Virus genome (UHGV): UHGV-1808406
DNA from: a virus
DNA length: 15,909 nucleotides
Reading direction: 5' to 3' (one strand)
Shown here: positions 9,847 through 11,824 of the stretch, piece by piece
Position numbering within the stretch: position 1 is the first letter of the stretch
How the letters are laid out: every line of letters begins with the position of its first letter
Program-made: the position numbers and the translations under genes
The notes under the pieces: model-generated
Told to the model about the DNA's origin: nothing
The model's database searches: none
Seen by the model: the letters and a program-made list of their open reading frames with translations, nothing else

Positions 9847-10308
9847 TCATTGAGTTTTAATTACTGCTTTAGAAGCCTTTCCTGGTAAACGACGACTGTT
9901 AATAATTGCCATCCTACATTGAAGTGACGGGTCTTTGAACTTCTCATTAGGTTTACAAACTGTAAATCCAAGCCAAAGATTTCCATCCGTGATTTCTAAA
10001 CGTCCAGGACGATATTCAACCCCATCAATAAAATCCTCGTCAATGTCAGGACGCGGAGGCATACTCAAGAATTCATTAACTTCTAAAACATGGTCTTTTA
10101 TTTTGTGGAATAATTCAAAAACATATGTCTCATCAATCTCCCGTTGAATTGCACGATCAAGAAGATGTTGAGAATATTTTAGATGAAACGATGAGACCCC
10201 TGCTGCTTTTGATGCCTCACGAATCTCATTGTTAATTTGACGAAACTCCGACTCAAAGTGACGACGGAGCTTATTTCGACGGATAAAAACTTCTGTGTTG
10301 ATAGTCAT
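9847..10308 (-). CDS. regB: RegB site-specific endoribonuclease (cleaves GGAG in early mRNAs), 153 aa
   Basis: Sequence and length match T4 RegB as I recall it, with the expected neighbours. Confidence 0.9.
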   Translation of the reverse strand: MTINTEVFIRRNKLRRHFESEFRQINNEIREASKAAGVSSFHLKYSQHLLDRAIQREIDETYVFELFHKIKDHVLEVNEFLSMPPRPDIDEDFIDGVEYRPGRLEITDGNLWLGFTVCKPNEKFKDPSLQCRMAIINSRRLPGKASKAVIKTQ

Positions 10309-10646: not shown

Positions 10647-10912
10647 TAATATTTTTCCTCTGGTTGGAACACCGCGCGACAAGCCCACATACTAGCTTCT
10701 TTGAGTTTCGTTTTAGCAATAGTTAGCTGATCGAGGCTTTCAGCATAATTCTTTGCGAATTCGTAGTCTTCGCAATTATCTAGTGCTTCCCAGAATTCAT
10801 CGTATAAAGCGTCAAAGATAAGTCCTAAACGAACTTCAGCATCTTTGATAGCATTCACTTTACCGATTTTCTCTTCAGTATGCGGCTTATAACCTTTAAT
10901 GTCTTCAATCAT
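10646..10912 (-). CDS. Small acidic hypothetical protein, 88 aa (vs.4 position by synteny)
   Basis: Compact ORF in the vs block, acidic, no recognisable motif. T4 vs.4 is the reported anti-CBASS protein Acb2; homology here is not verified. Confidence 0.5.
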
Positions 10913-11126
10913 ATTCTACTTCCTCACCCGTTCCCAAATCATATTCAACTAAACGAATAGGTTCATGAATTCCATATCCCTGAACAGAAATTTCTGTCGT
11001 AGGATAAATTCCACTAATATCACCCATGTTCCACGCTTCATTAAATTGCTGTTCGCCTGAATTACTAAACCATTCGGCGAAAGCATTTAACACATCTTCA
11101 GAACCTTCAATAATTATCTTTGCCAT
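10905..11126 (-). CDS. Small, very acidic hypothetical protein, 73 aa
   Basis: About 15 Asp/Glu against 4 Lys/Arg; C-terminus GTGEEVEYD. Confidence 0.5.
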   Translation of the reverse strand: MAKIIIEGSEDVLNAFAEWFSNSGEQQFNEAWNMGDISGIYPTTEISVQGYGIHEPIRLVEYDLGTGEEVEYD

Positions 11127-11488
11127 TACAGACTCTCAGTAAAGGTACGAGCGATAACGTCGCGCTGCTGTTCCGGAGTCAGAGAGTTAAAGCGAACTGC
11201 ATAACCGGATACACGGATGGTCAGCTGCGGATATTTTTCCGGATGCTTAACTGCATCTTCCAGAGTTTCACGACGCAGAACGTTAACGTTCAGGTGTTGA
11301 CCACCTTCAATTTTAACTGTAGGCTGTGGTTCAATTTCAATTTCACGGGTGTGCAAACCGTAGAAAATTTCTGGGTCTACAAAAGAGTCCTCTTTAAAGG
11401 TTTTAGAAACAATAATTCGTGCTTGAATACCATCTTCAAAATAAATAGTACCTTTATGTGTGCCTTCAAGAATTTGATATGCTTTCAT
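11126..11488 (-). CDS. grcA: Autonomous glycyl-radical cofactor (GrcA/YfiD-like; T4 Y06I type), 120 aa
   Basis: C-terminal 60 aa ([60 protein letters not shown]) carry the RVSGYAV glycyl-radical motif and are essentially the E. coli GrcA C-terminus as I recall it. Confidence 0.85.
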
Positions 11489-11494
11489 ATAACC

Positions 11495-11824
11495 TCAATT
11501 AGAAAATAAATTTATCCAAGACTGTTCTTTAATTAAAAATGGCTCAGAATCATATGCCATTAAACTTTGCGTAATTAATCCTTTAAAAGGTCCATCAATA
11601 AATTCCATGGTAAAATATGGAATTTTATTCATTAGCCGTGCATTAGGAGCAGTGCACAAAACTCTGCATCCTTTGAATACGCCTTTTTGTAATTTGTATT
11701 GCTTAGGATAAAATTCACTTAAAATGTTATTTTTTGCCAAAATTTCAAAATGATTCACCAATTTATTTTTAATAGTTTTTGGCGAAAAATAAAGATATTC
11801 GAAAAGCTGAGTGTCTGTCATCAT
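11495..11824 (-). CDS. Hypothetical protein, 109 aa
   Basis: ATGA overlap with the upstream gene; no motif recognised. Confidence 0.5.
   Translation of the reverse strand: MMTDTQLFEYLYFSPKTIKNKLVNHFEILAKNNILSEFYPKQYKLQKGVFKGCRVLCTAPNARLMNKIPYFTMEFIDGPFKGLITQSLMAYDSEPFLIKEQSWINLFSN

Follow-up and report, generated by a model that had tools for sequence, protein, structure and literature searches.

Host-derived grcA sequence within the glycyl-radical gene vs.6 of a T4-like coliphage

The window analyzed here, the whole 15,909-nucleotide stretch of virus genome UHGV-1808406, is 96% identical over its 15.9 kb to Tequatrovirus ECML-134 and covers the T4 nrdC–tk–vs–regB–gene 5 region, with all 34 non-overlapping open reading frames (ORFs) on the minus strand. 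The gene of interest is the ORF at 11126..11488 (minus strand, ATG start, 120 amino acids), the ortholog of T4 vs.6, which encodes the protein Y06I. The ORF shares 97.8% full-length nucleotide identity with T4_ev151 and with RB32, whose record names the gene vs.6, and its product differs from that of T4_ev151 at a single residue (Thr47 in the window, Ala47 in T4_ev151). This high identity is accompanied by a conserved position between vs.7 and vs.5 and upstream of regB (9847–10308), the order vs.7–vs.6–vs.5…regB being kept as in IME339. An old T4 entry carrying 1980s sequence, X04567, labels the gene 'ORF 63.1 (AA 1-120)'.

The encoded protein matched the Pfam family Gly_radical (PF01228) at 2.6e-18 (66.9 bits against a cutoff of 22.2) and carries the motif RVSGYAV at residues 92–98, in which Gly95, encoded by the GGT codon at 11204..11206 on the minus strand, is the glycyl-radical site predicted from sequence and alignment, equivalent to GrcA G102 and pyruvate formate-lyase (PFL) G734. 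The top PDB matches were GrcA (6OWR, 8.4e-42) and PFL (4.9e-26); the alignment to GrcA covers residues 28–127 of the latter, and vs.6 residues 58–120 align ungapped to PFL 697–759 (E = 4.9e-26). Like the small proteins of the GrcA/YfiD type (NCBIfam TIGR04365, InterPro IPR011140; about 120–130 amino acids), it combines a PFL-type Gly_radical end with the RVSGYAV glycine. TIGR04365 GrcA was also the best NCBIfam match, at 153.4 bits, against 234 for E. coli GrcA itself; the score stays under the equivalog cutoff of 170 because the N terminus has diverged. The protein matches PHROG 1209 over its full length and, though it functions in the manner of GrcA, belongs to this distinct phage subfamily. 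Both the gene and its biochemical role are already known, and it is annotated as GrcA in many phage records. Other records label it inconsistently as 'hypothetical protein', 'pyruvate formate-lyase', 'acetyltransferase-related', 'tail sheath monomer' or 'HNH homing endonuclease', and the PHROG 1209 label is still 'unknown function' although its member T4 Y06I has been characterized.

The original prediction, made from the sequence of the window, held that the C-terminal 60 or so residues are essentially identical to those of E. coli GrcA (YfiD), and this was confirmed: residues 62–120 are 100% identical to GrcA 69–127, overall identity being 73% over 100 amino acids. The two proteins share these 59 C-terminal residues and the same architecture of an N-terminal region followed by a radical domain. 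The identity extends to the DNA. Gene nucleotides 179–363 (window 11126–11310) matched grcA at 98.4–98.9% by BLASTN in 5,426 of 5,426 complete E. coli genomes, the matches always falling under grcA, and nucleotides 1–178 gave no nucleotide match in the same genomes. The longest exact run shared with a common E. coli grcA allele is 175 nucleotides (gene nucleotides 179–353, window 11136..11310, minus strand; residues E62–E118, equivalent to GrcA 69–125), hereafter the tract. Of 30 evenly spaced E. coli genomes, 13 carry a 171-nucleotide core (11138–11308) without a single difference, and 5,156 of the 5,426 carry it at 99% identity or more. Within nucleotides 179–363, phage and host differ only at two synonymous positions close to the stop codon, where the phage reads GAG AGT and the host GAA AGC; comparison with phages and hosts places the 3′ junction at 11126..11135 (minus strand), with phage synonymous sites at 11135 (G) and 11132 (T) followed by CTG TAA. 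Upstream of the tract lies the AT-rich, phage-type 5′ part of the gene (nucleotides 1–178, residues 1–60; 11311..11488, minus strand). At the megablast level, the tract is the only E. coli-like DNA in the whole window.

In composition, too, the tract stands apart. Its GC content is 0.497, whereas the 5′ 57 codons of the gene reach 0.345, and its GC content at third codon positions (GC3) is 0.42 against 0.20–0.21. When compared with all 2,710 other 57-codon stretches in the 34 ORFs of the window, it has the highest GC content (the highest elsewhere being 0.450) and the worst fit to the codon usage of the window (−1.231, against a minimum elsewhere of −1.149 and a mean of −0.889 with a standard deviation of 0.098). 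Its six leucines are all encoded by CTG, which makes up 5% of leucine usage in the window, and its three prolines all by CCG (7%). A GC-rich 3′ part with enterobacterial-style codons had been described up to roughly 11330; the extreme character of this part stands, with the border moved to about 11310. Exact identity to grcA over 175 nucleotides, together with host codon usage, bears out the earlier suggestion of a host-derived radical domain. Outside vs.6, the highest GC3 in the window (up to 0.456) was found in a minus-strand ORF at 1145–1459, which has no E. coli megablast match.

The original prediction had also proposed a nucleotide alignment to grcA to find a recombination boundary. Such a boundary was found as a sharp break at gene nucleotides 178/179, divergence along the gene being far from uniform. 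An informative-site test, run against three phage relatives with some 110 candidate breakpoints, placed the 5′ breakpoint between nucleotides 177/178 and 180/186 (Fisher p = 2e-9 to 1e-22), and to the right of it phage-type sites occur only at nucleotides 354 and 357. Because tdcE and pflB reach only 76–80% nucleotide identity to the tract among the matches listed, the donor was grcA and not pflB or tdcE.

Host grcA is flanked by ung and eamB in each of the two E. coli genomes examined. For the 5′ part and the tract, the proportion of synonymous differences (pS) in grcA is 0.50 and 0.58, respectively, between E. coli and Salmonella and 0.51 and 0.48 between E. coli and Klebsiella. Given this even divergence along the gene between genera and the shared ung–grcA–eamB context, the host gene has been vertically inherited; since the tract also has host composition, the phage is the recipient. 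No evidence of flow from phage to host was seen for vs.6 and grcA.

Comparison of the window with Mosigvirus was used to date the tract. The flanking 1.5 kb are 25–30% diverged and the 5′ half of the gene 11% (20/180), and the tract differs at 0–2 of 171 sites. The corresponding pS values are 0.33–0.36 in the 5′ half and 0–0.07 in the tract (P = 3e-8 to 9e-6), and in control pairs of phages lacking a host-like tract the two halves are equal in pS (0.64 vs 0.60; 0.80 vs 0.74). The near-zero values in the tract therefore make it much younger than the split between Tequatrovirus and Mosigvirus. We regard its host origin, its breakpoints and its youth as established.

Identity to the E. coli tract is bimodal across the phage collection. 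At least 95% identity was found in 643 phage records, 374 of them at 99% or more and 269 (T2 and T4 included) at 95–99%; only 2 records fall at 90–95%, and 107 at 80–90%. T4 itself has the same gene, the same neighbors and the same host-identical tract as the window, the differences being allelic only. Among the ten E. coli T-even phages compared, the 5′ junction (AAA ATT|GAA) does not vary. At the 3′ junction GAG is present in 10/10 and AGT in 9/10 (one has AGC), and the five host sequences compared all read GAA AGC. The GAGAG of this junction lies about 6 nucleotides upstream of the vs.5 ATG, and GAG AGT spans 6–11 nucleotides upstream; GAG AGT may be held as the ribosome-binding site of vs.5, which would fix the 3′ end of the tract. 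With respect to E. coli alleles, the window tract is identical at 171 of 171 sites to an SK1144-type allele, and the T4_ev151 tract is two sites away from it and one step closer to an O157-type allele. The idea that each phage tract allele matches an E. coli allele of its own is weakly supported: the T4 tract is nearer to the O157-type allele, and the tracts of phiC120 and IMG/VR Teq3 match no allele exactly.

A second set of host-like tracts was found in phages of Klebsiella. In the Jiaodaviruses Nispero, RCIP0032 and KP182 and an IMG/VR contig (loci L178:221-583, L179:221-583, L180:221-583 and L121:1680-1850), the tract is 94.6–97.6% identical to K. pneumoniae grcA, with an exact run of 101 nucleotides and a GC3 of 0.61–0.65 against 0.23 in the 5′ half. 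Their 5′ junction is the same as in T4 (at the EGGQ codons), and the 3′ junction lies about 20 nucleotides further upstream. When the phage collection was searched with the K. pneumoniae tract, 106 records were 95–99% identical and the E. coli T-evens 86–89%. The K. pneumoniae grcA was taken from PLSDB, which labels whole chromosomes or fragments as plasmids (CP125156.1, 5.37 Mb; LR134122.1), and the K. aerogenes NCTC10006 grcA (L177:100-423), annotated as 324 nucleotides with an apparent assembly frameshift, was left out of the ungapped comparison. Phage tracts lie 0–3% from those of their own hosts while the E. coli and K. pneumoniae tracts are 12% apart, so co-divergence cannot explain them. 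It is thereby essentially demonstrated that the same stretch of this gene was replaced from a host on two or more independent occasions. As a side observation, the 5′ half of vs.6 in the IMG/VR contig (L121:1480-1680) has a 1-nucleotide deletion (alignment column 166) that breaks the frame, either a sequencing error or a pseudogene.

Within Jiaodavirus, Roth21 (L083:481-651) and Nispero (L178) differ at about 14 sites in the tract and 4 in the 5′ half, a pattern expected from replacement by different donors. The Roth21 tract is about 91% identical both to K. pneumoniae and to a Klebsiella metagenome-assembled genome, with an intermediate GC3 of 0.49; it may come from an unsampled donor species, be an older conversion or be a mosaic. 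At 90.6% identity Roth21 was rejected as a recent K. pneumoniae conversion, the real cases being its sisters L121, Nispero and RCIP0032.

These observations are probably best accounted for by an old GrcA-like spare-part gene whose radical-domain part (175 nucleotides) was overwritten by host grcA via homologous recombination. Recombination with the E. coli chromosome during infection would have left a gene-conversion patch over this part, the only one in which protein constraint is expected to keep enough nucleotide similarity for recombination. The tract starts exactly where nucleotide similarity between phage and host starts, at highly constrained codons, and ends within the last conserved codons. 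Its endpoints look like those of a homologous-recombination patch, because both ends of such a patch must sit in similar sequence and none is present upstream. Laboratory precedent exists: T4 readily recombines with homologous DNA inside its host, and marker rescue of T4 from cloned homologous DNA is a standard technique (Völker & Showe 1980, cited in PMC8108384).

Whether conversion recurs is a separate question. We tentatively suggest, short of favoring it outright, that the radical half of vs.6 is a hotspot of repeated, host-matched conversion into virulent T-evens, from E. coli grcA into Tequatrovirus and Mosigvirus and from K. pneumoniae grcA into Jiaodavirus, with grcA as the master copy and the phage and host genes evolving in concert. 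Perfect identity over 175 nucleotides would ease further conversions, and the chromosomal copy could keep erasing phage mutations; repeated rescue of this kind would explain both why the genera barely diverge here and why most variants are private. Conversion may in addition give a better fit to the local PFL. At the positions equivalent to vs.6 residues 78 and 81, host grcA genes (L001–L082, L176) read LEDAVKH in 40 cases (Escherichia, one Citrobacter, others), LLDAVEH in 12 (Salmonella, Klebsiella, others) and LMDAVEH in 12 (mostly Enterobacter). LEDAVKH is common to E. coli and its T-evens and LLDAVEH to K. pneumoniae and Klebsiella phages; the latter is also found in Klebsiella Slopekviruses without a recent nucleotide match and in the E. 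coli phage phT4A (Slopekvirus). How the recombination proceeded, whether E. coli T-evens are still being re-converted and whether selection favors the outcome are matters of inference.

The principal competing account is a single host-to-phage event followed by phage–phage recombination across Tequatrovirus and Mosigvirus in co-infections, the Klebsiella tracts being a separate single event. T-even phages are known mosaics, and such a history would fit the identical 5′ junction in 10/10 E. coli T-evens, the shared 3′ junction (GA|G AGT) in 9/10 and the preponderance of private phage tract variants absent from E. coli. The immediate flanks, however, are 11–30% diverged between the genera, so spread would have to have moved the tract alone; the T4 tract and the window tract have different E. 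coli alleles as their nearest match; and the Roth21–Nispero comparison, with about 14 differences in the tract and only 4 in the 5′ half, is suggestive of two or more donors. A further point concerns RB69, a Mosigvirus. RB69 is reported in PMC6024577 to be unable to recombine with T4, which argues against simple spread from phage to phage. On balance we consider a single event with spread rather unlikely.

Several observations weigh against recurrent conversion, and some against the benefit proposed for it. Tequatrovirus and Mosigvirus have identical junctions, including GAG AGT, which a single event with phage–phage spread would also give. Most phage tract variants are private, the variants of phiC120 among those matching no E. 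coli allele, and the allele-sharing evidence, in which T4 is nearer to the O157-type allele, comes down to a single site. The comparison of recurrent conversion with a single event plus spread draws on ten phage alleles, too few to separate the two models, and the Klebsiella comparison on one K. pneumoniae strain. No phage in the collection carries a Salmonella-matched tract above 90% identity, and T4-like phages that infect E. coli or Klebsiella, namely Slopekvirus, Pseudotevenvirus and the group L101–L104, show no recent conversion, so that the gene does not as a rule undergo conversion. A benefit of nucleotide identity as such is conjectural, and in Citrobacter phage Maroon the identical 59 residues are specified by a sequence with 25 synonymous differences. 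Universal host tracking was rejected: the tracts of Slopekvirus, Pseudotevenvirus, a Karamvirus-like phage, L101–L104, Aeromonas phages and T5-like phages are only 74–86% identical to any of 84 host grcA genes.

For the function of vs.6 we rely on published work. GrcA residues 61–127 form a structured domain with the fold of PFL 693–759 that carries the radical glycine, residues 1–60 are disordered and aid binding to cleaved PFL (cPFL) and its activation, and PFL G734 is both radical and cleavage site (PMC8683613). T4 Y06I, like YfiD, receives a radical from the PFL-activating enzyme and restores oxygen-cleaved PFL, according to Wagner et al. 2001 as cited in PMC8683613; the earlier statement that GrcA and T4 Y06I can replace the oxygen-cleaved radical domain of PFL is thus in print. 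The converted tract (residues 62–118, equivalent to GrcA 69–125) lies within the structured radical domain, and the whole vs.6 radical domain is 100% identical to the solved GrcA structure. By analogy with the T4 protein, from which it differs by one residue, the window protein would act as a spare part for PFL: the host PFL-activating enzyme would place a glycyl radical on Gly95, the structured C-terminal domain would dock into host PFL cleaved at G734, and activity would return, presumably sustaining the fermentative energy metabolism of the host during infection under fluctuating oxygen. The C-terminal glycyl-radical domain of PflB (and TdcE) is the piece that such a spare part replaces. 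A point against this assignment is that it was made on the T4 protein, and the window allele differs at residue 47 (Thr instead of Ala).

The original prediction had further offered the anaerobic ribonucleotide reductase of the phage (NrdD) as a partner besides PFL; a role in place of PFL was considered along with it. NrdD is likewise an oxygen-cleaved glycyl-radical enzyme, and in a close relative its gene lies some 17.7 kb from vs.6; a part in nucleotide metabolism had been guessed in an early comparative study (PMC1524935), and spare parts for other glycyl-radical enzymes may exist, as speculated in PMC8683613. The sequences lend the idea no support. The best BLASTP match between vs.6 and the NrdD of a close Tequatrovirus relative has E = 9.8 and does not lie at the NrdD radical site, and the NrdD C terminus (...RRTCGYLGNPNERGF...) carries its radical motif, RRTCGYLG, in an unrelated context. 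A spare part must replace strand, loop and helix of its target, and the vs.6 domain is of the PFL type, identical to the host spare part for PFL and matching PFL 697–759 from end to end (E = 4.9e-26). A role with NrdD is therefore very improbable.

The host-derived radical domain had also been pictured as fused to a phage-type N-terminal region; this was taken here to mean a joining by illegitimate recombination to an unrelated phage sequence, giving a new chimeric gene. The sharp break in composition and identity at nucleotides 178/179 would suit such a fusion, as would the lack of nucleotide similarity to grcA in the N-terminal half, in which the phage 5′ part differs from host grcA by 1–3 nucleotides per codon. 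At the protein level the phage N-terminal half is 7 residues shorter than that of E. coli GrcA and about 29% identical, yet the two halves alone are collinearly homologous: hhalign gave a probability of 94% and E = 1.2e-7 over 48 collinear columns, against E = 0.2 for a reversed control, the signal falling to E = 0.0088 without the last 12 residues, those adjoining the junction. Homology thus extends to the disordered, cPFL-binding N terminus of GrcA, and BLASTP and phmmer carry the vs.6–GrcA alignment back to residue 22. Intermediate N termini in IMG/VR phage variants, for example L113–L118, bridge the host and T4 types. Moreover, many T4-like and T5-like phages have full-length homologs of 120–122 amino acids with phage-like GC3, whose 3′ halves are only 74–86% identical to any of 84 host grcA genes, so that the same architecture exists without a host-like tract. 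It follows from the N-terminal homology and from these homologs that an existing gene was partly overwritten rather than two unrelated pieces joined; the fusion is scarcely tenable, and the simplest history is that a full-length phage grcA homolog predates the tract and had its 3′ half overwritten later.

That no transfer into the phage took place at all, and that convergent codon optimization, purifying selection at the nucleotide level, an artifact of assembly from host reads or phage-to-host transfer produced the pattern, can be dismissed: nothing specific favors it beyond the high conservation of the encoded domain as a protein, and it is contradicted by an identity of 175/175 that is beyond convergence when phages encoding the same residues differ at pS 0.5–0.7, by the presence of the tract in 643 independent records of phages, among them T4 sequence from the 1980s (X04567), by a host gene that diverges uniformly in the same ung–grcA–eamB context in both E. 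coli genomes fetched, and by a tract composition that is that of the host and not of the phage.

In its evolutionary pattern, vs.6 resembles cyanophage psbA and psbD, which show patchy %G+C and statistically supported segments of intragenic recombination between host and phage (Zeidner 2005; Sullivan 2006; PMC1484495). Like these genes, vs.6 has a GC-rich, host-like patch with sharp breakpoints, and as in psbA-type mosaics this composition patch has statistically supported breakpoints and is closer to the host than to phage kin. Unlike them, it is carried by a strictly virulent coliphage, with a single tract within one structural domain; this tract coincides exactly with extant host alleles, and in each of two phage genera it matches the host species. 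The nucleotide chimerism of vs.6 and its host-matched recurrence were not found in the searchable literature, and earlier notice in the older T4 literature is possible; recurrent host-matched conversion would be a modestly interesting evolutionary observation, possibly unreported. A virulent phage that destroys host DNA still bears 175 bases copied verbatim from the host chromosome, and these lie in a structured domain that must fit host PFL and its activating enzyme. If the hotspot reading is true, it would be a natural and continuing counterpart of the marker rescue from host DNA done in the laboratory. In practical terms, the tract is a clean natural marker with which recombination between host chromosome and lytic phage can be measured. 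It might also be used to recognize the host species of a T-even genome, and contamination filters and host-prediction tools based on nucleotide matches should be applied with it in mind.

The same 120–122-amino acid architecture and motif as in vs.6 are found in genes of Jiaodavirus, Slopekvirus, Pseudotevenvirus and Aeromonas Biquartavirus and in T5.056, the T4-like members also sharing the genomic position of vs.6. The Jiaodavirus tract is of the K. pneumoniae type, and the other phage genes are without a recent host tract. In T5-like phages (T5.056, L090:220-588; L136–L162) the GrcA-like genes encode 122 amino acids, with tracts 72–78% identical to any host grcA and no sign of recent conversion; in the T5 record T5.056 adjoins tRNA genes and is annotated 'acetyltransferase-related'. 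Of the remaining sequences, L163–L173 are full-length or truncated PFL/TdcE-like genes. A 19-kb contig, L123 (IMGVR_UViG_2706794630_000006), encodes a host-type GrcA with a tract 91% identical to that of Yersinia artesiana; in this 'viral' contig the gene is probably not a phage gene but part of bacterial DNA or of a fragment bordering a prophage.

As for the immediate surroundings of vs.6, no promoter or terminator signal above shuffled expectation was found near the gene, consistent with a polycistronic early or middle transcript. A GAGG ribosome-binding site for vs.6, read from the sequence, lies at 11493..11496 (minus strand) and overlaps the end of the upstream neighbor, a vs.7-like ORF at 11495..11824. 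Downstream, the ATG of vs.5 (ORF 10905..11126) overlaps the vs.6 stop codon (TAATG, 11124–11128).

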